Part shown: one piece after another, positions 1,100 to 54,626 of the stretch
Layout: each line of letters begins with the position of its first letter
Numbering within the stretch: position 1 is the stretch's first letter
Source of the DNA: Caldilineaceae bacterium
Lineage (GTDB): Bacteria > Chloroflexota > Anaerolineae > Caldilineales > Caldilineaceae
Length of the DNA stretch: 64,000 nucleotides
Direction: 5' to 3'
Assembly (NCBI GenBank): GCA_965261695.1
Contig: OZ253474.1
Location: 3,411,340 to 3,475,339, forward strand
Position numbers and translations under genes: made by a program
Notes under the pieces: model-generated
Seen by the model: only the letters and a program-made list of their open reading frames with translations
Told to the model about the DNA's origin: nothing
The model's database searches: none

Positions 1100-1166
1100 T
1101 GAGCCACGCATGGGCCTGGGACCGGGCTGGCCGCGCTTGTTCTCTGGACAGAGTCAGGAGAGCGAA

Positions 1167-2033
1167 ATGACCGAGAGCGCCGTATCGGCAACTGAATCAT
1201 CTGTGCCCCACCGGAAAACTGCGGTGACCTCCGGCGCGGTGAGGCGGGACAACGACCAGGGCGTTGCGGCCGTTCATCCGCCGCTGACGCCCGCGGATAG
1301 ACGCGTCATCGAGCAACTTGTCACCGAGGACGACACCCCCGTGGATAACCGGTTTTCCGAAAAGCAGCGCCGCCTGCTGACGACGCCCTTGTACAACTCC
1401 TGGGCCGGACCTGGCGGCGGACGCCCGTTCATGGTCGGAGCCGATGTCGGCGTCTTTCTCCACCCCCGCGAAGCGCCGCTCGTCCCCGATGTTTTCCTCA
1501 GCCTCGATGTCATAGAGATAGAGGAGCCGTGGGGCAAGGAGGGACGCAGCTACTTTATCTGGGAGTACAAAAAGGCGCCCGATGTGGTGATCGAGGTGGT
1601 GTCAAACGAGAAAGGCGCTGAGGTTGCGTCCAAGTTCGCTGGCTACGCCCGCTTCGGCGTCCCCTGTTACGTGATATTCGACCCCTTGACGCTGGTGCAG
1701 AAGGAACCGGTACGGGCCTATCAACGTACGCCGGCCGGGGATTACAGGCCGTGCGCCTACGACATACTACCGGGAATTGGGCTGGGTCTGCGGCTGTGGC
1801 GGGGCGGATTCGACAATCTGCATGCAACCTGGTTGCGCTGGCTCGACGCGTCCGGCGAACTCGTTCTCACAGGTGAGGAACGCGCCGACCGGGAAAGAAG
1901 CAGAGCCGACCGGGAAAGAGACAGAGCCGACCAGGAAAGAGACAGAGCCGACCAGGAAAGAAGCAGAGCCGACAGGCTCGCAGCCCGGCTGCGCGCGCAC
2001 GGAATCTCGCCGGACAACGGCATGACGGATTAG
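1167..2033 (+). CDS. Uma2-family (DUF820) PD-(D/E)XK putative endonuclease, tandem copy 1
   Basis: ATG 1167 is preceded by AGGAG (1156-1160). The track start at 870 is an in-frame extension not shared by copies 2-5. Uma2-type motifs: PDVFLSLD, APDVVIEVVSNEKG, KFAGYARFGVPCYVIFDP. Four 21-bp (7-aa RAD[RQ]ER[SD]) repeats at 1887-1970. Confidence 0.85.
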   Translation: MTESAVSATESSVPHRKTAVTSGAVRRDNDQGVAAVHPPLTPADRRVIEQLVTEDDTPVDNRFSEKQRRLLTTPLYNSWAGPGGGRPFMVGADVGVFLHPREAPLVPDVFLSLDVIEIEEPWGKEGRSYFIWEYKKAPDVVIEVVSNEKGAEVASKFAGYARFGVPCYVIFDPLTLVQKEPVRAYQRTPAGDYRPCAYDILPGIGLGLRLWRGGFDNLHATWLRWLDASGELVLTGEERADRERSRADRERDRADQERDRADQERSRADRLAARLRAHGISPDNGMTD

Positions 2034-2100
2034 TTTTGCGTTTATTGGTTCTCAGTTGGGCGACTGGACAGGTGGAGACCTGGCAGGGGAGGCGTGCGAA

Positions 2101-2967
2101 ATGACCGAGAGCGCCGTATCGGCAACTGAATCATCTGTGCCCCACCGGAAAACTGCGGTGACCTCCGGCGCGGTGAGGCGGGACAACGACCAGGGCGTTG
2201 CGGCCGTTCATCCGCCGCTGACGCCCGCGGATAGACGCGTCATCGAGCAACTTGTCACCGAGGACGACACCCCCGTGGATAACCGGTTTTCCGAAAAGCA
2301 GCGCCGCCTGCTGACGACGCCCTTGTACAACTCCTGGGCCGGACCTGGCGGCGGACGTCCGTTCATGGTCGGAGCCGATGTCGGCGTCTTTCTGCACCCC
2401 CGCGAAGCGCCGCTCGTCCCCGATGTTTTCCTCAGCCTCGATGTCATAGAGATACAGGAGCCGTGGGGCAAGGAGGGACGCAGCTACTTTATCTGGGAGT
2501 ACAAAAAGGCGCCCGATGTGGTGATCGAGGTGGTGTCAAACGAGAAAGGCGGTGAGGTTGCGTCCAAGTTCGCTGGCTACGCCCGCTTCGGCGTCCCCTG
2601 TTACGTGATATTCGACCCCTTGACGCTGGTGCAGAAGGAACCGGTACGGGCCTATCAACGTACGCCGGCCGGGGATTACAGGCCGTGCGCCTACGACATA
2701 CTACCGGGAATTGGGCTGGGTCTGCGGCTGTGGCGGGGCGGATTCGACAATCTGCATGCAACCTGGTTGCGCTGGCTCGACGCGTCCGGCGAACTCGTTC
2801 TCACAGGTGAGGAACGCGCCGACCGGGAAAGAAGCAGAGCCGACCGGGAAAGAGACAGAGCCGACCAGGAAAGAGACAGAGCCGACCAGGAAAGAAGCAG
2901 AGCCGACAGGCTCGCAGCCCGGCTGCGCGCGCACGGAATCCCGCCGGACAACGGCATGATGGATTAG
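2101..2967 (+). CDS. Uma2-family putative endonuclease, tandem copy 2
   Basis: ATG 2101 is preceded by GGGGAGG in the conserved 67-nt spacer. Near-identical to copy 1. Four 21-bp repeats at 2821-2904. Confidence 0.85.
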   Translation: MTESAVSATESSVPHRKTAVTSGAVRRDNDQGVAAVHPPLTPADRRVIEQLVTEDDTPVDNRFSEKQRRLLTTPLYNSWAGPGGGRPFMVGADVGVFLHPREAPLVPDVFLSLDVIEIQEPWGKEGRSYFIWEYKKAPDVVIEVVSNEKGGEVASKFAGYARFGVPCYVIFDPLTLVQKEPVRAYQRTPAGDYRPCAYDILPGIGLGLRLWRGGFDNLHATWLRWLDASGELVLTGEERADRERSRADRERDRADQERDRADQERSRADRLAARLRAHGIPPDNGMMD

Positions 2968-3034
2968 TTTTGCGTTTTTTGGTTCTTAGTTGGGCGACTG
3001 GACAGGTGGAGACCTGGCAGGGGAGGGGTGCGAA

Positions 3035-3880
3035 ATGACCGAGAGCGCCGTATCGGCAACTGAATCATCTGTGCCCCACCGGAAAACTGCGGTGACCTCC
3101 GGCGCGGTGAGGCGGGACAACGACCAGGGCGTTGCGGCCGTTCATCCGCCGCTGACGCCCGCGGATAGACGCGTCATCGAGCAACTTGTCACCGAGGACG
3201 ACACCCCCGTGGATAACCGGTTTTCCGAAAAGCAGCGCCGCCTGCTGACGACGCCCTTGTACAACTCCTGGGCCGGACCTGGCGGCGGACGTCCGTTTAT
3301 GGTCGGAGCCGATGTCGGCGTCTTTCTGCACCCCCGCGAAGCGCCGCTCGTCCCCGATGTTTTCCTCAGCCTCGATGTCATAGAGATAGAGGAGCCGTGG
3401 GGCAAGGAGGGACGCAGCTACTTTATCTGGGAGTACAAAAAGGCGCCCGATGTGGTGATCGAGGTGGTGTCAAACGAGAAAGGCGCTGAGGTTGCGTCCA
3501 AGTTCGCTGGCTACGCCCGCTTCGGCGTCCCCTGTTACGTGATATTCGACCCCTTGACGCTGGTGCAGAAGGAACCGGTACGGGCCTATCAACGTACGCC
3601 GGCCGGGGATTACAGGCCGTGCGCCTACGACATACTACCGGGAATTGGGCTGGGTCTGCGGCTGTGGCGGGGCGGATTCGACAATCTGCATGCAACCTGG
3701 TTGCGCTGGCTCGACGCGTCCGGCGAACTCGTTCTCACAGGTGAGGAACGCGCCGACCGGGAAAGAAGCAGAGCCGACCGGGAAAGAGACAGAGCCGACC
3801 AGGCCGAAAGCAGAGCCGACAGGCTCGCAGCCCGGCTGCGCGCGCACGGAATCCCGCCGGACAACGGCATGACGGATTAG
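3035..3880 (+). CDS. Uma2-family putative endonuclease, tandem copy 3
   Basis: ATG 3035 with the same spacer and RBS. Three 21-bp repeats at 3755-3817. Confidence 0.85.
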   Translation: MTESAVSATESSVPHRKTAVTSGAVRRDNDQGVAAVHPPLTPADRRVIEQLVTEDDTPVDNRFSEKQRRLLTTPLYNSWAGPGGGRPFMVGADVGVFLHPREAPLVPDVFLSLDVIEIEEPWGKEGRSYFIWEYKKAPDVVIEVVSNEKGAEVASKFAGYARFGVPCYVIFDPLTLVQKEPVRAYQRTPAGDYRPCAYDILPGIGLGLRLWRGGFDNLHATWLRWLDASGELVLTGEERADRERSRADRERDRADQAESRADRLAARLRAHGIPPDNGMTD

Positions 3881-3947
3881 TTTTGCGTTTTTTGGTTCTT
3901 AGTTGGGCGACTGGACAGGTGGAGACCTGGCAGGGGAGGGGTGCGAA

Positions 3948-4856
3948 ATGACCGAGAGCGCCGTATCGGCAACTGAATCATCTGTGCCCCACCGGAAAAC
4001 TGCGGTGACCTCCGGCGCGGTGAGGCGGGACAACGACCAGGGCGTTGCGGCCGTTCATCCGCCGCTGACGCCCGCGGATAGACGCGTCATCGAGCAACTT
4101 GTCACCGAGGACGACACCCCCGTGGATAACCGGTTTTCCGAAAAGCAGCGCCGCCTGCTGACGACGCCCTTGTACAACTCCTGGGCCGGACCTGGCGGCG
4201 GACGTCCGTTCATGGTCGGAGCCGATGTCGGCGTCTTTCTGCACCCCCGCGAAGCGCCGCTCGTCCCCGATGTTTTCCTCAGCCTCGATGTCATAGAGAT
4301 ACAGGAGCCGTGGGGCAAGGAGGGACGCAGCTACTTTATCTGGGAGTACAAAAAGGCGCCCGATGTGGTGATCGAGGTGGTGTCAAACGAGAAAGGCGGT
4401 GAGGTTGCGTCCAAGTTCGCTGGCTACGCCCGCTTCGGCGTCCCCTGTTACGTGATATTCGACCCCTTGACGCTGCTGCAGAAGGAACCGGTACGGGCCT
4501 ATCAACGTACGCCGGCCGGGGATTACAGGCCGTGCGCCTACGACATACTACCGGGAATTGGGCTGGGTCTGCGGCTGTGGCGGGGCGGATTCGACAATCT
4601 GCATGCAACCTGGTTGCGCTGGCTCGACGCGTCCGGCGAACTCGTTCTCACAGGTGAGGAACGCGCCGACCGGGAAAGAAGCAGAGCCGACCAGGAAAGA
4701 AGCAGAGCCGACCAGGCCGAAAGCAGAGCCGACCAGGAAAGAAGCAAAGCCGACCAGGAAAGAAGCAGAGCCGACCAGGAAAGAAGCAGAGCCGACAGGC
4801 TCGCAGCCCGGCTGCGCGCGCACGGAATCCCGCCGGACAACGGCATGACGGATTAG
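3948..4856 (+). CDS. Uma2-family putative endonuclease, tandem copy 4
   Basis: ATG 3948 with the same spacer and RBS. Six 21-bp repeats at 4668-4793. Confidence 0.85.
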   Translation: MTESAVSATESSVPHRKTAVTSGAVRRDNDQGVAAVHPPLTPADRRVIEQLVTEDDTPVDNRFSEKQRRLLTTPLYNSWAGPGGGRPFMVGADVGVFLHPREAPLVPDVFLSLDVIEIQEPWGKEGRSYFIWEYKKAPDVVIEVVSNEKGGEVASKFAGYARFGVPCYVIFDPLTLLQKEPVRAYQRTPAGDYRPCAYDILPGIGLGLRLWRGGFDNLHATWLRWLDASGELVLTGEERADRERSRADQERSRADQAESRADQERSKADQERSRADQERSRADRLAARLRAHGIPPDNGMTD

Positions 4857-4923
4857 TTTTGCGTTTATTGGTTCTTAGTTGGGCGACTGGACAGGTGGAG
4901 ACCTGGCAGGGGAGGCGTGCGAA

Positions 4924-5811
4924 ATGACCGAGAGCGCCGTATCGGCAACTGAATCATCTGTGCCCCACCGGAAAACTGCGGTGACCTCCGGCGCGGTGAG
5001 GCGGGACAACGACCAGGGCGTTGCGGCCGTTCATCCGCCGCTGACGCCCGCGGATAGACGCGTCATCGAGCAACTTGTCACCGAGGACGACACCCCCGTG
5101 GATAACCGGTTTTCCGAAAAGCAGCGCCGCCTGCTGACGACGCCCTTGTACAACTCCTGGGCCGGACCTGGCGGCGGACGTCCGTTCATGGTCGGAGCCG
5201 ATGTCGGCGTCTTTCTGCACCCCCGCGAAGCGCCGCTCGTCCCCGATGTTTTCCTCAGCCTCGATGTCATAGAGATACAGGAGCCGTGGGGCAAGGAGGG
5301 ACGCAGCTACTTTATCTGGGAGTACAAAAAGGCGCCCGATGTGGTGATCGAGGTGGTGTCAAACGAGAAAGGCGCTGAGGTTGCGTCCAAGTTCGCTGGC
5401 TACGCCCGCTTCGGCGTCCCCTGTTACGTGATATTCGACCCCTTGACGCTGGTGCAGAAGGAACCGGTACGGGCCTATCAACGTACGCCGGCCGGGGATT
5501 ACAGGCCGTGCGCCTACGACATACTACCGGGAATTGGGCTGGGTCTGCGGCTGTGGCGGGGCGGATTCGACAATCTGCATGCAACCTGGTTGCGCTGGCT
5601 CGACGCGTCCGGCGAACTCGTTCTCACAGGTGAGGAACGCGCCGACCGGGAAAGAAGCAGAGCCGACCGGGAAAGAGACAGAGCCGACCAGGAAAGAAGC
5701 AGAGCCGACCAGGAAAGAAGCAGAGCCGACCAGGAAAGAAGCAGAGCCGACAGGCTCGCAGCCCGGCTGCGCGCGCACGGAATCCCGCCGGACAACGGCA
5801 TGACGGATTAG
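4924..5811 (+). CDS. Uma2-family putative endonuclease, tandem copy 5
   Basis: ATG 4924 with the same spacer and RBS. Five 21-bp repeats at 5644-5748. Confidence 0.85.
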   Translation: MTESAVSATESSVPHRKTAVTSGAVRRDNDQGVAAVHPPLTPADRRVIEQLVTEDDTPVDNRFSEKQRRLLTTPLYNSWAGPGGGRPFMVGADVGVFLHPREAPLVPDVFLSLDVIEIQEPWGKEGRSYFIWEYKKAPDVVIEVVSNEKGAEVASKFAGYARFGVPCYVIFDPLTLVQKEPVRAYQRTPAGDYRPCAYDILPGIGLGLRLWRGGFDNLHATWLRWLDASGELVLTGEERADRERSRADRERDRADQERSRADQERSRADQERSRADRLAARLRAHGIPPDNGMTD

Positions 5812-5972
5812 TTTTGCGTTTTTTGGTTCTTAGTTGGGCGACTGGACAGGCTCGGTTTACCAGCATGGATCGGTTTGGCTGTTCAATTGACTACATTGTT
5901 GCGCTAAACGCACAAGAGAATTAGAGCGGAGAAAGTACTGCCCGCCATAGCCTATGCCTTGACGGAGAAAGT

Positions 5973-7010
5973 GTGAGCAGAAATATGCAGGCGCTTGAAG
6001 AATTGCAAAGCCGCGCGCAAGAGGAGTTGGCCGCAACCGACACCGTCGAAGCCACCGAGTCCTGGTTCCGGGACTATCTGGGGCGCAATGGGGCGCTCAC
6101 CGATTTTCTGCGGGGATTGAGCGAGCTTTCGCGCGCCGAGCGCCCGGCGGCCGGCCGCGCCGGCAATGAACTGAAAAATCTACTGGAAGCCGCCCTGCAC
6201 ACCCGCCAGGAGGCGATCCGCCAGCAGGAGATGGTGCAGACGCTGGCCGCCGAGGGCGTGGACGTAACCCTGCCGGGGCGCAAGCCGAACCTGGGCAAGA
6301 TCCATCCGAGCAATCAGACGCTGCGCGAGATTGCGCAGATATTCGGCCAGATGGGCTTCCAGGTTTACGACGCGCCGGAGGTCGAAACCGACGAAAACAA
6401 CTTTGGCCTGCTCAACATCCCGCAGGGACATCCCGCCCGCGATATGTGGGATACATTCTACACAACGACGCCCGGCGTGATCCTGCGCACCCACACCAGC
6501 CCCGGCCAGATCCACGCGATGCGGGAGTACTGCCCCGAGCCGATTCGGGTGATTCTGCCGGGCAAATGTTACCGCCATGAGGACGTCAGCGCCCGCTACG
6601 ACATGATGTTCCACCAGGTGGAGGGGCTGGTCGTCGGCCACAACGTAACCTTCAGCGACCTGAAGGGCACGCTCGTGAACTTCGCCAACCAGATGTTCGG
6701 CCAGGGGCGCAAGCTGCGCTTCCGCAAGAGCTATTTCCCCTTCACCGAGCCTAGTGTCGAGGTGGACGCCGGCTGCGTTCTGTGCGCAGCCGAGGGCTGC
6801 CGCATCTGCAAGCAGACCGGCTGGTTGGAGATTTTAGGCGCGGGGATGGTGCATCCGATCGTGCTGCAAAACGGCGGCTACGACCCGTCTGTCTTCAGCG
6901 GCTTCGCCTTCGGCATGGGGCCGGAGCGGATCGCAATGCTCAAGTACGGCATTGACGACATCCGCTACTTTTTCACCAATGACGTGCGCTTCCTCGAACG
7001 GGTCGGATGA
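5973..7010 (+). CDS. pheS: phenylalanine--tRNA ligase alpha subunit
   Basis: GTG 5973 lies 5 nt after GGAG (alternative ATG at 5985). Class II aaRS motifs are present: HPARDMWDTFY, FRKSYFPFTEPSVEVD, GMVHP, FGMGPERIAMLKYGIDDIR. Confidence 0.95.
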   Translation: MSRNMQALEELQSRAQEELAATDTVEATESWFRDYLGRNGALTDFLRGLSELSRAERPAAGRAGNELKNLLEAALHTRQEAIRQQEMVQTLAAEGVDVTLPGRKPNLGKIHPSNQTLREIAQIFGQMGFQVYDAPEVETDENNFGLLNIPQGHPARDMWDTFYTTTPGVILRTHTSPGQIHAMREYCPEPIRVILPGKCYRHEDVSARYDMMFHQVEGLVVGHNVTFSDLKGTLVNFANQMFGQGRKLRFRKSYFPFTEPSVEVDAGCVLCAAEGCRICKQTGWLEILGAGMVHPIVLQNGGYDPSVFSGFAFGMGPERIAMLKYGIDDIRYFFTNDVRFLERVG

Positions 7011-14818: not shown

Positions 14819-15418
14819 TCAGTCGTTGGAAGAGGAGTAGTCGAACTGAGGATCCCACTCACTCCAGCCGTCCGGCGGCAGATTGAAGAGATGCCACACG
14901 CCGCAATACAGATCGCCAGGCCCGAAATCGTCCTTTGATACGCGAACGATCGTACCGTCCTCGTTCTTATGAAAGATAAAAACTCCAGGTTGGTAGCCCG
15001 ACAAAAACTTTTCGTCTTCCCTTTGGAAGCCCATGTCCTTGAAGAACGTGGTGCCCTCTGCAGAGTACATCGTGAACCGCCAACCTCGCTTCCTCGCGAA
15101 GTCTTGCTGCTCTCTCGGGCTGTCGGGTGATACCACCGCAAAGGCGGCTCGGCTCTGCAAGTGGTGAACGACGCCGTTGAACGCATCAGCCCACACGGTG
15201 CAGTTCGAGCAACCGGCGCCCATGTTGTGGATGAAGTCGTCCTTGTCTCCGAACATCTCCGAAATCTTTACGGGGCCGTCCGCACTTTTGAGTTCGTAGT
15301 CTTTCACAGGCTTGGGGGCCAACTGCCGCCGTAGCTTCATCAGCTCTTGTCGCGCCTCTCCCAACTCATTCTGGGCAACGGCGATCTCCCTCTCCAACTC
15401 TGTGTAGGTGTTAGACAC
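14819..15418 (-). CDS. DUF899-family thioredoxin-like protein
   Basis: 199 aa. N-terminal coiled coil, then the GAGCSNCTVWADAFNG Cys motif and a thioredoxin-fold-like remainder, as in DUF899 proteins. Confidence 0.65.
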   Translation of the reverse strand: MSNTYTELEREIAVAQNELGEARQELMKLRRQLAPKPVKDYELKSADGPVKISEMFGDKDDFIHNMGAGCSNCTVWADAFNGVVHHLQSRAAFAVVSPDSPREQQDFARKRGWRFTMYSAEGTTFFKDMGFQREDEKFLSGYQPGVFIFHKNEDGTIVRVSKDDFGPGDLYCGVWHLFNLPPDGWSEWDPQFDYSSSND

Positions 15419-15589
15419 GTCTTCCTCCTTGTCCTGGCACTGCGGTTGATATTGTTGTGCGGTTGAGGGGCTCCTTTGGTTTCTGACGCAGCCATGGGGA
15501 AGAGCATATTTACAGCTCGAGATTTGTCAAAGCTGGGTCCCACCTGGCAGTTGCCCAGTTTGTCGTGAGGGAGACACCTCCGTCAATTC

Positions 15590-16782
15590 GGGTGCATCCC
15601 AAATTTTTGGGGAACGTGCCCCTGCGATCGCGGGCCTCTCGCCCGCAGCCGGTTTCGGCTTCCGCGCCTGTTGAAGAACTGCTCCAATGGGTGACAGATG
15701 CAGGTTGCCTGTCGCCAGAATCGAACCGCAACTCGCCTGATTCTCGTCAACGAAGACGCCGCCTGAGCCGCTGCCATCAACTATCTCCAGCATACTGACT
15801 GCCTGAACCACAGTTCAGACAACTGCTGCGAGTCCTGCCCTTCAGAGCAACTCAGAAACGCTCCCCCATTCTGAGATACACCCTGGAATCTCCAGCAACT
15901 GCAAACGCCCCGCTTTTGTAGTACACTTGTGCGCAAGACGAACGAGCGCAGCCGCGGCCCTGCCGCAACTGCATACCGATTTCAAATGAATGCCATGCCA
16001 TTTTGCCCATCCTGCCCCCTGCGCGCGGGAGCCACGCGCAGCAAACTGCTGCCCTCCCTGCCCAGCCGCTGCTGCAACAACCCGTTGCCCGCCATTCCCG
16101 AAAAAACTATTTTGGGACGAAGAATGACGAGAAATGACGAGAAATGACGAAAAATGACGAAAGAACACGCCCAAACGTGCCCGAACGTATCCGAACACGA
16201 AAAAAAAAAATTGGCGCGACTAAACGCGACTAAACGCGACCAAACGCGACTAAACGCGACTTGGCGCGTTCGCAAACGCTCGCAAACGCTCGCAAACGCT
16301 CGTAACTGCTTGCAAACGCTCGTAAACGCTCGTAACTGCCTACACTGGCACACCTGACCTGCGCGCCCCGCACGTCGCCTGCAAGCGGCCCATAACCCCG
16401 GGCGCAGCCGAAATTCCGCCCCCATTCTTGGATTCATCCGCCCGAGGCGCCGATAGCGGAACTTCAACAGTGTCTCAACGAACGCCACTCTGTGCGTTTT
16501 GTGCGTTTTCAGTACTCAGAGTGATTGCGATGCTGTAAATCGTGGTGCGCGGGCGGATAAAACGCAGCCCAACTGCTCAGCGCCGACGCGCGCTTCCCTT
16601 GCATGGGTGCATCCCAGTTTTTCGTTAAGATGAAAGGGCGTAGACGCGGAGAAGGGGTTGAGAAGACCAAAGGGGATCCCCTGGCGATGCCTGCACTCCG
16701 CACGACTCCGCTCAGTCAAACCTGGCCTCAACTGCTTCAACCGCTTGGCTTTACTCGACGCACAATAATCTGGGATGCACCC
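15590..16782. mobile_element. non-autonomous TIR transposable element, copy 1 (1,193 bp, no conserved ORF)
   Basis: Perfect 12-bp TIRs GGGTGCATCCCA (15590-15601) and TGGGATGCACCC (16771-16782). 8-bp direct target duplication GTCAATTC (15582-15589 and 16783-16790). A second copy elsewhere in the window has a different TSD. Confidence 0.9.
16116..16340. repeat. about 22 consecutive 10-bp-phased short direct repeats (four iteron types) around an A11 run, inside element copy 1
   Basis: 5x GACGA(A/G)(A/G)AAT. 4x C(A/G)(C/T)G(C/T/A)-CC(A/G)AA-type units. A11 at 16200-16210. 5x CGCGAC(T/C)AAA. 7x CGCT-CG(C/T)AA(A/C)-type units. All lie in one 10-bp register. Confidence 0.9.
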
Positions 16783-16797
16783 GTCAATTCCGATGCC

Positions 16798-16826
16798 TTG
16801 CCAACGCGTTGTCGGTCAGCTACACT
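16798..16826 (+). promoter_or_regulatory. sigma70-like promoter candidate for the MoxR/VWA pair
   Basis: TTGCCA (16798-16803), 17-nt spacer, TACACT (16821-16826), about 100 nt upstream of ATG 16929. Hexamer match only. Confidence 0.4.
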
Positions 16827-17932: not shown

Positions 17933-19312
17933 ATGGAAGAGCGAATCGTAAAGTTCATTTCGGCGTTGCGTTCCGGCGGCGTGCGCGTCAGCCTGGCGGA
18001 GAGCGCGGATGCCTTCTCCGCCGTGGAAAACCTGGGCGTGCAGGATCGGGATACGTTTCGCCTGAGTCTGCGGGCAACTCTCGTCAAGGATCTGGAGAGC
18101 CTGCCCACTTTTGAGGAGCTTTTCCCCCTCTTTTTTGGCAGCGGCGAGCCGCCCCCGCTGATGAATCTGATGCAAGACCTGACCGAGGAAGAGGCCAATA
18201 TGCTGGCCGAGGCGCTGCGCCAGTTCGGCCAACGGCTGCGGGATATGCTGGAGCGGCTCCTGCGCGGCGAGGAGCTCACGCCGGAGGAGTTGGATGCCCT
18301 GGGCCAGATGGTGGGCCTGAACCAGGCCGATGACCTGCGCTACCGCGAATGGATGGCGCGCCGGATGCAGCGCGCGCTCCAGTTCGACCAGGTGCGTGAG
18401 GCGATGCAGGAGATCATGGAGTTGATGGCCCAGATGGGAATGAACAAGGAGCGCCTGGAGCAGATGCGCCAACTGATCGCCCAGAATATGGATTCGCTGC
18501 AGGAGCAGTTGCGCCAGCACGCCGGCCAGCGAATTGCTGAAAACATGGCCGAACAGCGCCCGGAGGATCACCTGGACGGGCTGATGGACCGACCGTTTCA
18601 GGCGCTGTCGGACGGCGACATGCAGAAGTTGCGCCAGGAGGTGCGACGGCTGGCCGCGTTGCTGCGCAGCCGAATCGCCCTGCGTCAGAGGCGGGCCAAG
18701 AGCGGCCAACTGGACGCCAAAGCGACGATCCGGGCCAACCTCAAGCACGGGGGCGTCCCCTTCCAGATCAAGCACCGCGACCGCACCGTCAAGCCCAAGT
18801 TGGTGGTGATCTGCGACATCAGCACCTCGATGCGCCACTGCACAGAGTTGATGCTTTCTCTGCTATACGAGTTGCAGGATCAGGTGAGCAAGACGCATAC
18901 CTTCGCCTTTATCGACCATCTGGAGTACATCACGCCGGACTTTCAGGGCAACCGGGCCAATGAAGCAATCCAGCAGGTGTTGATCCGGATGCCGCCAGGC
19001 TCTTACAGCACCGATCTGGGGCACAGCTTGCAGAATTACGCCGATGACTATCTGGACACCATCGACCACCGGACAACGCTGATCGTGGTGGGCGACGGGC
19101 GCAATAACTACAATGATCCCCGGCTGGATATCTTCAAGCTGATGGCCCGGCGCAGCCGCCGCACCCTATGGCTAAACCCGGAATTGCCGATGCTGTGGGG
19201 CAGCGGCGACAGCGATATGCTGGAGTATGTGCCCCTGTGCGACAGGATTTTGCAGGTCAGTACCCTCTCCGAACTGACGGATGCGGTGGATCAGTTGATT
19301 GTCGAGAAGTGA
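17933..19312 (+). CDS. VWA-domain protein (CoxE-like), partner of the MoxR ATPase
   Basis: The C-terminal VWA has a MIDAS-like DxSxS (VVICDISTSM) and LIVVGDGRNNY. The N-terminal region is similar to CoxE-type proteins. It starts 11 nt after the MoxR stop. Confidence 0.8.
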   Translation: MEERIVKFISALRSGGVRVSLAESADAFSAVENLGVQDRDTFRLSLRATLVKDLESLPTFEELFPLFFGSGEPPPLMNLMQDLTEEEANMLAEALRQFGQRLRDMLERLLRGEELTPEELDALGQMVGLNQADDLRYREWMARRMQRALQFDQVREAMQEIMELMAQMGMNKERLEQMRQLIAQNMDSLQEQLRQHAGQRIAENMAEQRPEDHLDGLMDRPFQALSDGDMQKLRQEVRRLAALLRSRIALRQRRAKSGQLDAKATIRANLKHGGVPFQIKHRDRTVKPKLVVICDISTSMRHCTELMLSLLYELQDQVSKTHTFAFIDHLEYITPDFQGNRANEAIQQVLIRMPPGSYSTDLGHSLQNYADDYLDTIDHRTTLIVVGDGRNNYNDPRLDIFKLMARRSRRTLWLNPELPMLWGSGDSDMLEYVPLCDRILQVSTLSELTDAVDQLIVEK

Positions 19313-19345: not shown

Positions 19346-21160
19346 GTGACCGATTCCCCCACCAGAACAATTGCACGGTTTGCAAGTGGGCTGGCGGCGC
19401 TCTGCCTGTTCAGCGCCGTGCTCTTTGTCGCGGCGCAGCGGTTTGACCTGGTAGAGCGTGCCAAAAAGCTACTGCTGAACGTCTCCGCTATCAACCCTTC
19501 TCCCGTCGTGGATCCGTGCGGCCCGGAGTTGAGCGCCGCTGCCATCGTTGCGCGTATCAACTACAGGGACGCCGAGGCACTGCACGCCCTCTTCGACCGC
19601 GTCGACATCTGGCACGTTTATCCCAACCAACAAACGGCTGTGGCGCTGGTGTCACCGGCGGATCAGTCCTGGCTGACCGGTGAAGGCTATCCCTTCTCGG
19701 AGGAAGTGCGGCAGACCGCCGCGCTGCCGGACCCCTGCGCGCTCCAGGCGCAGGCCGACCAGAGCGGCATCCCAGGCTATGCCTGTTATCGCACAGTGAA
19801 GAAGACCTACAGCGATCTGGCCGCGCTAGCCGAGCAATACCCAGAACTGGCCGAATGGAGCGACATCGGCAACAGTTGGTACAAGATCCGCAGTTGGGGT
19901 TTGGCCGGTTACGACATCCAGGCGCTCGTGCTGACGAACAGTCAGCCCACCGACTTTGAGAAGGGTGAGTTGGTGGTGATGGCCGCGGCCCACCCGCGCG
20001 AGTTGGTGACGGCGGAACTCGCTACGCGCTTTGCCGAAAAGCTGCTCGTCGGATATGGAGCGGACCCCGATCTGACGTGGCTGCTCGACTACAACCGCAT
20101 CCACATCATCCCTCAAGCCAATCCCGATGGCCGCAGTTGGGTCGAGGTGGGGCACCTCTGGCGCAAGAATGCGAACAGCACCAATGGCTGCGAATTCCCC
20201 CGCCACGGCGTTGACCTCAATCGCAACGGCAGCTTTCTGTGGAATCACTGTAATGGCTGCTCTTCCGACGATGTCTGTTCGGTCTTCTACCGGGGGCAAA
20301 AGGCGGCGTCCGAACCGGAGACGGGGGCGATTGAAGCCTACCTGCGCGCCGTCTTCCAAGACCAGCGGGGCGAGGGCTACAACGACCCGGCTCCGGAGGA
20401 TACCAACGGCGTTTTCATTTCGCTCCACTCCTTCGGTCGGCTGCTACTCTACCCTTGGGAGCACACGTCCGCGCTGGCGCCGAACCGGGACGCGCTGCGC
20501 CGCCTTGGCCGCAAGCTGGGCTATTCCCCCGGTTACAAGGTCTGCAACGCCGAACTATGCATGTACCGCTTCGACGGCAGCGCGACTGATTACGCCTACG
20601 GCACGCTCGGCGTCGCCTCCTATACCTATGAGATCGGCACTGCGTTCTTCCAGAGCTGCCCCTATTTTGAATCGTCGATCGTCGAACAAAATCTGGACTC
20701 GCTCGTCTATGCGGCCAAGGCGGCCCGGCGCCCTTACCAATTGCCTGCCGGGCCCGACGTGACGGACGCGAGCGTAGATCCGCCGCAGGCATCGCCGGGG
20801 ACGGCGGTCACGTTGTCCGCCACCGCCGATGACACCCGCAGCGCCGGCAGCGGCTCCGACAAGGAACCGGCTCAGCATATCAGCGCAGCCCGCTTCTCGA
20901 TCGACACGCCCTCCTGGCTGACGACCACGTTCGGAACGCTGCAACCGCTGGACGACGCGTTCGATGCCACAGTTGAGTCATTGACAGGGACGCTAGACAC
21001 AACCGATTTGCAACCTGGCGCGCATACCATTTTCCTGGAAGCGCAGGATGCCGACGGCAACTGGGGCCCGCCCACCGCGATATCGGTTGAGGTCGTCCCC
21101 TCCGCAGCGGAGCCGACGCCGACACCGCATAAAATGTATCTGCCGAATGTGTGGCGATAA
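19346..21160 (+). CDS. M14-family zinc carboxypeptidase, secreted or membrane-anchored
   Basis: N-terminal hydrophobic anchor. HPRE zinc motif (AAAHPRELVT), IIPQANPDG, GVDLNRN, FISLHSFG, catalytic YTYEIG. The C-terminal extension ends in a Pro/Thr-rich tail. Confidence 0.85.
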   Translation: MTDSPTRTIARFASGLAALCLFSAVLFVAAQRFDLVERAKKLLLNVSAINPSPVVDPCGPELSAAAIVARINYRDAEALHALFDRVDIWHVYPNQQTAVALVSPADQSWLTGEGYPFSEEVRQTAALPDPCALQAQADQSGIPGYACYRTVKKTYSDLAALAEQYPELAEWSDIGNSWYKIRSWGLAGYDIQALVLTNSQPTDFEKGELVVMAAAHPRELVTAELATRFAEKLLVGYGADPDLTWLLDYNRIHIIPQANPDGRSWVEVGHLWRKNANSTNGCEFPRHGVDLNRNGSFLWNHCNGCSSDDVCSVFYRGQKAASEPETGAIEAYLRAVFQDQRGEGYNDPAPEDTNGVFISLHSFGRLLLYPWEHTSALAPNRDALRRLGRKLGYSPGYKVCNAELCMYRFDGSATDYAYGTLGVASYTYEIGTAFFQSCPYFESSIVEQNLDSLVYAAKAARRPYQLPAGPDVTDASVDPPQASPGTAVTLSATADDTRSAGSGSDKEPAQHISAARFSIDTPSWLTTTFGTLQPLDDAFDATVESLTGTLDTTDLQPGAHTIFLEAQDADGNWGPPTAISVEVVPSAAEPTPTPHKMYLPNVWR

Positions 21161-21235: not shown

Positions 21236-21279
21236 TCAACCTCGATATACCGGTGCAAAGTGGTTGGCTGCTCTTGTCA

Positions 21280-21657
21280 CCACTGACCACTGACCACTGA
21301 CCACCGACCACCGACCACTGACCACCGACCACCGACCACCGACCACTGACCACTGACCACCGACCACCGACCACTGACCACTGACCACAGGCCACTGACC
21401 ACTGACCACTGACCACTGACCACTGACCACTGACCACTGACCACTGACCACTGACCACTGACCACTGACCACTGACCACCGACCACCGACCACCGACCAC
21501 CGACCACCGACCACCGACCACCGACCACAGGCCACTGACCACTGACCACCGACCACCGACCACCGACCACCGACCACCGACCACCGACCACTGACCACTG
21601 ACCACTGACCACTGACCACTGACCACTGACCACCGACCACTGACCACCGACCACTGC
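21280..21657. repeat. heptanucleotide tandem array, 54 units (30 CCACTGA, 22 CCACCGA, 2 CCACAGG)
   Basis: Counted unit by unit from 21280. Unit order (T=CCACTGA, C=CCACCGA, X=CCACAGG): TTTCCTCCCTTCCTTXTTTTTTTTTTTTCCCCCCCXTTCCCCCCTTTTTTCTCT. The array ends 3 nt before the AAAAGGAG RBS region of ilvE. Confidence 0.97.
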
Positions 21658-53050: not shown

Positions 53051-53079
53051 ATTATAGTTTGTCGGCTGTAAGCTGTCAA
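53051..53079 (-). promoter_or_regulatory. consensus sigma70 promoter for the DtxR-family regulator
   Basis: On the minus strand: TTGACA (53079-53074), 17-nt spacer, TATAAT (53056-53051), 54 nt upstream of ATG 52996. The inverted repeat TAATT-N4-AATTA overlaps the -10 and start region. Confidence 0.6.
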
Positions 53080-53094
53080 TACTTGGAAATGAAC

Positions 53095-54312
53095 GGGTGC
53101 ATCCCAAATTTTTGGGGAACGTGCCCCTGCGATCGCGGACCTCTCGCCCGCAGCCGGTTTCGGCTTGCGCGCCTGTTGAAGAACTGCTCCAATGGGTGAC
53201 AGATGCAGGTTGCCTGTCGCCAGAATCGAACCGCAGCTCGCCTGATTCTCGTCAACGAAGACGCCGCCTGAGCCGCTGCCGTCAACTGTCTCCAGCATAC
53301 TGACTGCCTGAACCATAGTTCAGACAACTGCTGCGAGTCCTGCCCTTCAAAGCAACTTAGAAACGCTCCCTCATTCCGAGATGCCCCTGGAATTCCCAGC
53401 AACTGCAAACGCCCCGCTTTTGTAGTACACTTGTGCGCAAGACGAACGAGCGCAGCCGCGGCCATGCCGCAACTGCATACCGATTTCAAATGAATACCAT
53501 GCCATTTTGCCCATCCTGCCCCCGGCGCGGGGGAGCCACGCGCAGCAAACTGCTGCCCTCCCTGCCCAGCCGCTGCCGCAACAACCCGTTGCCCGCCATT
53601 CCCGAAAAAGCCATTTTGGGACGAAGAATGACGAAGAATGACGAGAAATGACGAAAAATGACGAAAGAACACGCCCAAACGTGCCCGAACGTGTCCGAAC
53701 AAAAAAAAAATTGGCGCGACTAAACGCGACCAAACGCGACTAAACGCAACTAAACGCGACCTGGCGCGCTCGAACACGCTCGCAAACGCTCGTAACTGCA
53801 GGCAAACGCTCGTAACTGCAGGCAAACGCTCGTAACTGCAGGCAAACGCTCGTAAACGCTCGTAACTGCCTACATGGCACAGCTGACCTGCGCGCCCCGC
53901 ACGTCGCCTGCAAGCGGCCCGTAAGCCCGGGCGCAGCCGAAATTCCGCCCCCCATTCTTGGCTTCACCCGCGCGAGGCGCCGATACTGGAACTTCAACAG
54001 TGTCTCAACGAACGCCAATCTGTGCGTTTTGTGCGTTTTCAGTACTCAGAGTGATTGCGATGCTGTAAATCGTGGTGCGCGGGCGGAAAAAACGCAGCCC
54101 AACTGCTCAGCGCCGACGCGCGCTTCCCTTGCATGGGTGCATCCCAGTTTTTCGTTAAGATGAAAGGGGGTAGACGAGGAGAGGGGAATGAGAAGACCAA
54201 AGGGGATCCCCTGGCGATGCCTGCACTCCGCACGACTCCGCGCAGTCATACCTGGCCTCAACTGCTTCAACCGCTTGGCTTTACTCGACGCACAATAATC
54301 TGGGATGCACCC
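53095..54312. mobile_element. non-autonomous TIR transposable element, copy 2 (1,218 bp)
   Basis: Same 12-bp TIRs (53095-53106 and 54301-54312) and same orientation as copy 1. Its own 8-bp target duplication is AAATGAAC (53087-53094 and 54313-54320). Confidence 0.9.
53620..53870. repeat. 10-bp-phased iteron/A-tract core of element copy 2
   Basis: Same four iteron types as copy 1 around an A10 run (53701-53710). The last array is expanded by 3 copies of the 20-bp unit CAAACGCTCGTAACTGCAGG. A 3-4 nt deletion next to the A-run shifts the register between the two halves. Confidence 0.9.
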
Positions 54313-54626
54313 AAATGAACAAATACGTTGACATATTCACACCCACAGCCAGTGCCTTCCAACGAGCAAGGCACGGAATTACCCTCAGACAGATCGAGAA
54401 TATCTTTCAGGGCGAAACGATGACTTGCTGTCCAGCGTGCATCCCGGATTTGGGGCGCCCCGGTTCAACGGGTTGCGGACACCGGTCTGGATGTCCGGAT
54501 ATGTTCCCCAACTCGCGCCCGCTTTGGACCGCACCCCATGTCCAAAAAAGGGATTGATGATTCCAGGGCTATCTGATACAATTCGCTTGTCCCGGTATAT
54601 GTATTGAGAGTAGAGTTTGAGCTTTG

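Follow-up and report, generated by a model that had tools for sequence, protein, structure and literature searches.

A gene-less 1.2-kb mobile element of Caldilineaceae is very probably a composite, non-autonomous member of the ISKra4 family

What kind of mobile DNA is a 1.2-kb insert that carries no transposase gene, is bounded by inverted repeats, and is present twice within one short stretch of a chromosome? The question is raised by a 64,000-nucleotide stretch of a Caldilineaceae bacterium (assembly GCA_965261695.1, contig OZ253474.1, positions 3,411,340 to 3,475,339 of the forward strand; hereafter the window), in which the proteins flanking the inserts and their nearest database relatives are labeled Caldilineaceae (Chloroflexota). 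The original prediction, made from the letters of the window, treated the insert as an apparently unclassified non-coding transposon whose terminal inverted repeats it had not assigned to an insertion sequence (IS) family. We find that this label has to be replaced, in that the ends belong to the ISKra4 family of the Mutator superfamily, and that the element is very probably a new, non-autonomous, composite member of that family rather than a mobile element of an unknown kind.

Pairwise alignment reproduced the two copies with the coordinates, 12-bp ends and 8-bp duplications that had been described for them. The copies are 95.6-96% identical, and their similarity opens exactly at GGGTGC and closes exactly at GCACCC, with unrelated flanks on either side. 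The features that define these limits are as follows.

15590-16782, plus strand: copy 1 of the element, read as a composite non-autonomous ISKra4-type element, 1,193 bp, with sharp homology limits against copy 2
15582-15589: left target-site duplication of copy 1, GTCAATTC, identical to the 8-mer at 16783-16790
16783-16790: right target-site duplication of copy 1, GTCAATTC
15590-15609, plus strand: outer left inverted repeat, perfect over 12 bp and matching the right end at 18 of 20 bases
53095-54312, plus strand: copy 2 of the element, 1,218 bp
53087-53094: left target-site duplication of copy 2, AAATGAAC
54313-54320: right target-site duplication of copy 2, AAATGAAC

The flanking 8-mers are perfect (8/8) at both copies and differ between the copies. 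The 12-mer GGGTGCATCCCA, which forms the perfect inverted ends of both, occurs six times in the window compared with 0.6 expected, a count reached by none of 100 shuffles, and two of the six occurrences are intact left-type ends lying inside the copies (at 16605 and 54135, respectively). The imperfect extension of about 8 bp that had been proposed for the inverted repeat was also recovered, the outer left end being GGGTGCATCCCAAATTTTTGG and the right end its near-complement, with 18 of 20 bases matching. The 20-bp consensus of the end, GGGTGCATCCCAnATTTTTGG, is common to the ends of ISKra4-type ISs and of miniature inverted-repeat transposable elements (MITEs) in other Chloroflexota.

A scan of one genome per species with a degenerate form of the end returned at least 113 loci (without copy numbers, and from a collection to which the genome of the window does not belong), and among the matches listed were end pairs approximately 1.45 kb apart that enclose transposase genes. 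Complete ISs, all with an ISKra4-type transposase gene between GGGTGCATCCCA ends, were found at loci L040/L071, L140, L105, L058, L109, and L072. Those at L040 (1234-2692) and L071 (1497-2955) are identical 1,459-bp ISs on one Caldilineaceae chromosome, with duplications gctggaag and tcagaccc, and L140 (2463-3913) is a complete 1,451-bp IS that is 78.8% identical to the L040 IS and carries the duplication TTTCGCTT/TTTCGCCT. The contig that holds a copy of the element at L136 also holds the complete IS L140, and partner and element therefore co-occur. The transposases between these ends scored 217 and 266 bits on NF033572 (‘ISKra4 family transposase’, cut-off 205), 73-109 bits on the ISLre2 model (cut-off 200) and 50-83 bits on the ISH6 model (cut-off 240), and the NCBI name of a 99%-identical protein is ‘ISKra4 family transposase.’ Because the same ends flank ISs whose transposases pass the ISKra4 model, we classify the ends of the element as ISKra4. 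Target duplications are perfect over 8 bp at both window copies and at L137a, L040, L071, L045, and L030; they match at 7 of 8 bases at L135, L138a, and L140, at 8 of 9 at L136, and span 9 bp at L058.

These properties can be set beside the published description of the family, which corresponds to p-MULT 4, has 18-39-bp repeats with a terminal C, duplicates 8 or 9 bp of its target (Guerillot et al. 2014, PMC3942029), and had already been recorded in Chloroflexi (PMC3942029). The supplementary table of that work includes ISKra4-group ISs that open with GGGTGC, namely ISAcce1 (GGGTGCATTTAA), ISBeg3 (GGGTGCAGTCG), and ISCasp2 and ISCasp3 (GGGTGCG); the entries with the GGGTGC start have 9-bp repeats, and the family as a whole has repeats of 8 or 9 bp (PMC3942029).

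Two observations concern the partner ISs themselves. The transposase gene is split at L040 (1318-2671), L140 (2542-3888), and L105 (5007-6408) into a zinc-finger orfA and a catalytic orfB, and the +1 phase change between them falls at the same G5T4C6 run (CGQG|FSPLD) in all three ISs, which are 50-79% mutually identical; the change reflects either programmed frameshifting or a recurrent long-read homopolymer error. Additionally, the 12-nt tip GGGTGCATCCCA is kept across phyla though the associated transposases are just 28-50% identical, its carriers including Paracoccaceae (L058, L100), cyanobacteria (L044, L099) and a Candidatus Methanofilum archaeon (L080), and a C-terminal transposase fragment adjoins the tip even in the contig of that archaeal metagenome-assembled genome (MAG).

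The position of the insertions provides a second line of evidence. Each copy lies next to a host promoter.

16798-16826, plus strand: host promoter TTGCCA-17-TACACT of a moxR-type AAA/VWA operon, found by promoter scan; its -35 box starts 15 nt past the right end of copy 1
53051-53079, minus strand: host promoter TTGACA-17-TATAAT (12/12) of a dtxR/mntR-type gene; its -35 box lies 15 nt from the left end of copy 2

At copy 1 the right end is followed by the 8-bp duplication, seven further bases and then TTGCCA-17-TACACT, and the dtxR-type promoter beside copy 2 is conserved, without the element, in sister species (L141-L143). Across Chloroflexota ends, a stringent sigma-70-type promoter stands at an offset of 14-16 nt in 14 of 57 cases, compared with a background of 118 of 89,028 control positions (0.13%; p ~4e-28). 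The same site can also be used twice: at locus L137 (3644-5751) two members of the family are stacked head-to-tail on one promoter (TTGCAA-17-TATCCT), with the younger 1,178-bp copy between the promoter and an older 922-bp A-type element that has been pushed upstream, and the shared 8-mer GGTTGGTT that splits the two stands on both sides of the younger copy, which indicates that the same target was used twice. ISKra4-group elements are reported to insert 13-17 bp from predicted sigma-A promoters (PMC3942029), and the promoter-upstream positions found here match that specificity.

On the far side of copy 2, a TTGACA hexamer (54328-54333) lies 7 nt past the right duplication, which is again 15 nt from the end. 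This hexamer is not a promoter if the 80-aa open reading frame (ORF) at 54315-54557 is real, because it would then lie inside a gene. The ORF begins inside the right duplication of copy 2, and its N-terminus (…RARHGITLRQIENIF…) is reminiscent of BrnT/DUF497-type toxins.

Bacteroidota are rich in MITEs of about 115 bp that carry the same ends (GGGTGCATCCCAAATTG), as seen in Chitinophagales/Ferruginibacter MAG contigs (L019, L035, L053, L089, L096, L103, and L107). Of 82 outward flanks, 7 have the Bacteroidetes -7 box TAnnTTTG beginning 36-40 nt from the junction, with a mode of 38 (background 0.7%, p = 2e-6). An offset of 38 nt is also where the -10 box starts in the Chloroflexota insertions, and the reference point of the ruler may thus be the -10/-7 element (+38) and not the -35 sequence.

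The insert was originally taken to be a single unit with a cargo. A ten-copy alignment and targeted comparisons instead resolved it into a chain of end-bearing modules, with three further inner ends per copy that the original prediction had missed. The parts are listed below for copy 1, with their counterparts in copy 2 at the end.

15590-15883, plus strand: module A1, MITE-like, 294 bp; its left end is intact and its right end, R1 (15872-15883, TGAGATACACCC), is decayed
15899-15927, plus strand: fossil promoter-like site CTGCAA-17-TACACT, read from the sequence, starting 15 nt past R1
16116-16339: four adjoining tandem arrays of 10-bp period (GACGAAAAAT, GCCCGAACGT, CGCGACTAAA, and TCGCAAACGC) with phased A-tracts, found with TRF
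16428-16439, minus strand: R2, a decayed right-type end (TTGGATTCATCC) that closes module A (15590-16439)
16440-16604: 165-bp spacer joining modules A and B, conserved in composite copies and absent from the free-standing L137b
16605-16782, plus strand: module B, a 178-bp MITE with an intact left-type end (16605-16616) and a right end at 16771-16782
Copy 2: decayed inner right ends at about 53377-53387 and at 53958-53969, arrays at 53620-53865, module B at 54135-54312

Both decayed right-type ends inside copy 1, TGAGATACACCC and TTGGATTCATCC, came from a relaxed end scan, and both are better preserved elsewhere. R1 has just one mismatch in L136 and L137b, and the two ends of module A1 pair in a predicted fold (z = -4.5 on the minus strand), the fold-back expected of a MITE. 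R2 aligns to the intact TGGGATGCACCC in L139 and to the true right end of L137b, a 922-bp element with its own duplication in which module A is free-standing; the right end of module A is thus intact in L137b and L139 and decayed in the window. The CTGCAA-17-TACA(C/A)T block past R1 is kept in 10 of 10 aligned family copies, with TACAAT in the diverged ones. Judged from its sequence, R1 with a promoter-like site 15 nt further on appears to be the signature of an old promoter-upstream insertion that has since become cargo. The spacer was also inspected for a promoter at 15 nt from either R2 or the inner left end, and none was found.

Module B can be traced further, to an internally deleted ISKra4-type IS. 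Its halves match both ends of a 564-bp inner unit at L134, which retains the N-terminal (MKREEAKAKF...CPHCGQEMK) and C-terminal coding parts of a transposase and is 73% and 70% identical to the L040 IS; direct matches between module B and the ends of the L040 IS are weak. The three form a size series of descent, from the 1,459-bp L040 IS through the 564-bp unit of L134 to the 178-bp unit of the window. Transposase remnants were exposed by the DNA-level comparison through L134 only, and descent from an ISKra4-type IS is accordingly established for module B only; a protein-level search of the whole element detected no transposase remnant, and none is detectable in module A or the spacer.

The recovered strains bear on the age of the two insertions. 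Strain loci were found in several long-read metagenome assemblies by exact-protein look-ups with the M20 peptidase beside copy 1 and the dtxR-type protein beside copy 2. Each of the eight strain contigs recovered has the insertion at an unchanged position (copy 1 in L130-L132, copy 2 in L001-L005), and orthologous copies are 97-99.8% identical while the two paralogues are 95.6% identical; given this identity and the presence of the insertion in all strains, both insertions predate the sampled strain diversity. In the sister species L141-L143, whose DtxR-type protein is 89% identical, the orthologous promoter lies in a 224-bp intergenic region that contains no element, and homology to the window ends near the point of insertion. 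The search for empty sites that had been suggested originally therefore yielded a promoter without the element, which is supportive rather than base-exact. Look-ups with other neighbors of copy 1, the DUF899-type protein (14819-15418) and the VWA-type protein (17933-19312), returned no record.

Further members of the family were recovered with the translation of a spurious ORF that is annotated inside the element in some assemblies. This probe retrieved at least 117 clusters of such ORFs, with amino-acid identities of 31-95%, nearly all in ENA assemblies and often several per multi-megabase contig. Among six loci fetched, full copies (L135, L136, L137a, and L138a) show 88-95% DNA identity and stand at unrelated sites with their own duplications, and older partial or diverged copies are present at L134, L137b, L138b, and L139. 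L134 lies on the same 5.49-Mb contig as the copy-2 locus of one strain, so that the species holds at least three copies. The further copies and the autonomous partner that the original prediction had proposed to look for were found as ORF clusters and, for a putative partner, as ISs with the same ends in other genomes; the 64-kb window contains no such partner. A scan of JGI metagenomes with the 26-nt left end gave no matches, and a scan of viral contigs with the degenerate end gave 11 single, chance-like matches. One Caldilineaceae relative, L045 (2801-3861), has the same left/inner-left/right layout and the 8-bp duplication cctttttt; its cargo of about 950 bp looks protein-coding (a hydrophobic ORF), and it resembles a mobile insertion cassette (MIC).

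The claim that the element is non-coding and non-autonomous was supported. No transposase homologue was detected in the 64-kb window (tblastn best E 0.69). Rfam searches of the window at gathering thresholds and of the element at E <= 1 gave nothing meaningful, the single match scoring 21.5 bits compared with a threshold of 81.9. No frame of the element is under coding constraint, and the element thus lacks the passenger gene of a MIC. It has the attributes of a MITE apart from size, being, as originally noted, larger than a typical MITE: the mobile unit is a composite of 1,193-1,218 bp, and modules A1 (294 bp) and B (178 bp) are themselves of MITE size.

The arrays are the most distinctive part of the interior. 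They phase A-tracts over approximately 23 helical turns, and they form the two places with the highest A-tract periodicity (power 1.29 and 0.92, 99th percentile 0.36) and the highest predicted curvature (19.0 and 18.3, 99th percentile 12.7) in the 64 kb; the periodicity measure is parameter-free, and the wedge-model curvature was calculated with our own code using parameters after Bolshoy et al. 1991. Arrays are found in every family copy, including ones that are just 74-81% identical, with varying unit numbers, and all but one of the arrays of 10-, 20-, or 30-bp period in the fetched loci belong to the family of the element. Conservation along the element is nearly flat (0.74-0.96 per 20 nt), and the arrays and the internal promoter block are conserved no better than the rest, the whole decaying about as uniformly as neutral DNA. 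The phase between arrays has been lost in copy 2 through a 4-nt deletion, and the L134 array has about 40 units. The ‘organised cargo’ of the original prediction is real, its arrays being the most curved DNA of the window, but the interior decays about as evenly as neutral DNA would; a function of the arrays is possible but finds no support. Separately, the 9-mer AACGTGCCC beside the outer left repeat (15612-15620) recurs in array B (16175-16183), which may be chance or the trace of a local duplication. We considered the arrays as extra transposase-binding sites on account of this 9-mer and set the idea aside as a single weak coincidence.

Several other explanations of the locus have to be weighed against an ISKra4-family origin. 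The two copies could have arisen by segmental duplication or recombination, with the flanking 8-mers coincidental, and beyond the mere existence of two similar copies nothing speaks for this. Their boundaries coincide exactly with the inverted repeats, each copy has a different, perfect 8-mer, and at least eight further insertions of the family and its parent IS have 8-bp repeats of their own (L135-L138 among them, at unrelated sites), so that this account is already contradicted by the data, we give it next to no credence, and the original preference for transposition holds. The element could instead derive from another Mutator-like family (IS256, ISH6, or ISLre2) and have ISKra4-like ends by chance. 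Repeats of 8-9 bp with a terminal C are indeed common to all p-MULT families (PMC3942029), and the transposases beside the ends do match ISLre2 and ISH6 weakly, at the 73-109 and 50-83 bits given above; yet the curated cut-off is passed for the ISKra4 model only, the GGGTGC tip agrees with published ISKra4-group ends, and IS256 shows no promoter targeting in the literature, which together make such an origin very unlikely. It is also conceivable that the element codes for a real protein, either as a partly autonomous element or with a passenger gene, the candidates being a 249-293-aa minus-strand ORF and a 53-72-aa ORF containing CPSC, and gene callers do predict ORFs of 160-345 aa inside many copies (117 clusters). 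We consider this highly improbable, since copies that are 88% identical in DNA share just 61-62% amino-acid identity, the ratio of non-synonymous to synonymous polymorphism (pN/pS) is approximately 0.3-2.5 for every element ORF of at least 60 aa compared with five copies, and the frames run through the tandem arrays and the terminal repeat and are broken by 1-, 2-, and 4-bp indels among copies that are 88-96% identical. The absence of a conserved ORF from the original description thus stands.

A different proposal would add to an ISKra4-family origin rather than replace it, namely that the cargo of curved arrays, promoter-like site and possible transcript is a selected functional module that is delivered upstream of promoters, where it might insulate, offer nucleoid proteins a binding platform, encode a regulatory RNA, or help the transposition complex to assemble. 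This would fit the exceptional curvature and A-tract phasing of the arrays, their persistence in all family copies even at 74-81% identity, the near absence of comparable 10-bp arrays elsewhere in the fetched loci, and the retention of the CTGCAA-17-TACA(C/A)T block in all copies. The flat conservation, in which neither arrays nor promoter block are better kept, points the other way, as do the variation in unit number and inter-array phase (the deletion in copy 2, the ~40 units of L134) and the lack of an Rfam match; moreover, the 440-680 bp between the arrays and the targeted promoters exceed the reach of a classical upstream-element effect, and slippage alone is able to maintain tandem arrays. 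We therefore regard a selected cargo as unlikely. A mobile ‘promoter-upstream module’ made up of the arrays together with the fossil promoter is likewise quite unlikely; if this were true, the element would install strongly bent, possibly transcribed DNA 15 bp upstream of many promoters and could rewire or insulate transcription. Alternatively, the array bend could help to join the two ends during transposition.

The assignment of the element to the ISKra4 family, with its promoter homing and mobilization by a partner IS, also has observations that weigh against it. A stringent promoter is present at just about a quarter of the ends, and to the right of copy 2 a -35 box stands without a good -10 box. 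In its 8-bp repeats and split transposase gene the parent IS resembles the ISMich2 group, but promoter targeting is a reported property of the ISKra4 group. The strains L001-L005 and L130-L132 showed no insertion polymorphism, and hence no sign of current activity, nor was a base-exact empty site found, as in L141-L143 the upstream gene differs and synteny is lost just upstream. The 64-kb window holds no ISKra4 transposase, the complete partner ISs come from other genomes, and mobilization in trans is a step that we infer.

With an ISKra4-family origin as the preferred reading, the history of the element can be outlined as follows. The outer 20-bp inverted repeats would be the ends recognized by an ISKra4-family transposase, probably supplied in trans by a 1.45-kb IS of the L040/L071/L140 type. 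Insertion proceeds by an 8-bp staggered cut, which is visible as the duplications, and follows a fixed ruler that places the repeat tip 14-16 bp upstream of the -35 box and approximately 38 bp upstream of the -10 box and leaves the core promoter intact. The ruler probably contacts promoter-bound RNA polymerase or sigma factor, as has been proposed for TnGBS, ISLre2, and ISKra4, and a circular intermediate is probable by analogy with IS256 and TnGBS in the literature. The 1.2-kb body would have been built as such elements homed repeatedly to sites of one kind and the inner ends then decayed; anatomy and intermediates are both observed, and the order of events is a probable reconstruction. Along the body, this would have yielded a 294-bp MITE, a captured promoter-led segment with the 10-bp arrays and a second decayed right end, the spacer, and an IS shrunk to 178 bp. 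Only the outermost left and right ends and one inner left end are still perfect, and for this reason the chain would now move as one piece.

With ISKra4-family ISs the element shares the GGGTGC.../...GCACCC ends, the 8-9-bp duplications, insertion 13-17 bp from sigma-A promoters and insertion in either orientation when the repeats are near-perfect, and module B derives directly from such an IS by deletion; unlike them, it has no transposase gene, is non-coding at 1.2 kb, and consists of several fused end-bearing modules. The TnGBS integrative and conjugative elements and the ISLre2 ISs (p-MULT 3) are alike in having a Mutator-like DDE enzyme and in inserting 15-17 bp upstream of the sigma-A -35 box with the promoter left intact, but they use another transposase family (the ISLre2 score here is below cut-off), reside in Firmicutes hosts, insert in one orientation and bear genes. 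Bacterial MITEs are likewise non-coding and non-autonomous, with inverted repeats of a parent IS, target duplications, many copies and a fold-back, whereas the element at 1.2 kb is several times their usual size and has three extra internal ends. As in MICs and composite transposons, IS-type ends mobilize transposase-free DNA, but here the passenger is non-coding and the modules are joined head-to-tail rather than enclosed by two complete ISs. Non-autonomous Mutator elements of plants, such as Pack-MULEs, offer an analogy only: they share the transposase superfamily, duplicate 8-9 bp of target, take up host DNA between their ends and tend to insert near the 5' ends of genes, but are eukaryotic and have long terminal repeats.

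The window contains other repeats as well. Five tandem units of approximately 934 bp (1156-5982) are 97-99% identical, each with three to six copies of the 21-bp sub-repeat GCCGACCAGGAAAGAAGCAGA. At 21279-21656 the 7-bp repeat ACCACTG stands 54 times in tandem (94% match), directly downstream of the stop codon (21160) of a peptidase M14-type ORF (19346-21160).

For annotation, these results turn an ‘unclassifiable repeat’ into a large, defined set of non-coding ISKra4-type elements in Caldilineaceae, which gene callers currently report as over 100 hypothetical proteins. In uncultured Chloroflexota the elements serve as markers of promoters, and with their ends as a ready probe the IS lineage can be sought in Chloroflexota, Bacteroidota, cyanobacteria, and Paracoccaceae. 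The promoter offsets give statistically strong and independent support to the published fixed-position promoter homing, from a phylum that was barely sampled in 2014, and the module anatomy shows a route by which separate elements, along with promoter DNA that they captured, can become joined through homing into a new and larger mobile unit. If the ruler is indeed set from the -10/-7 element, this would mean that RNA polymerase bound at the promoter is what the transposase reads, even between phyla whose promoter grammars differ.

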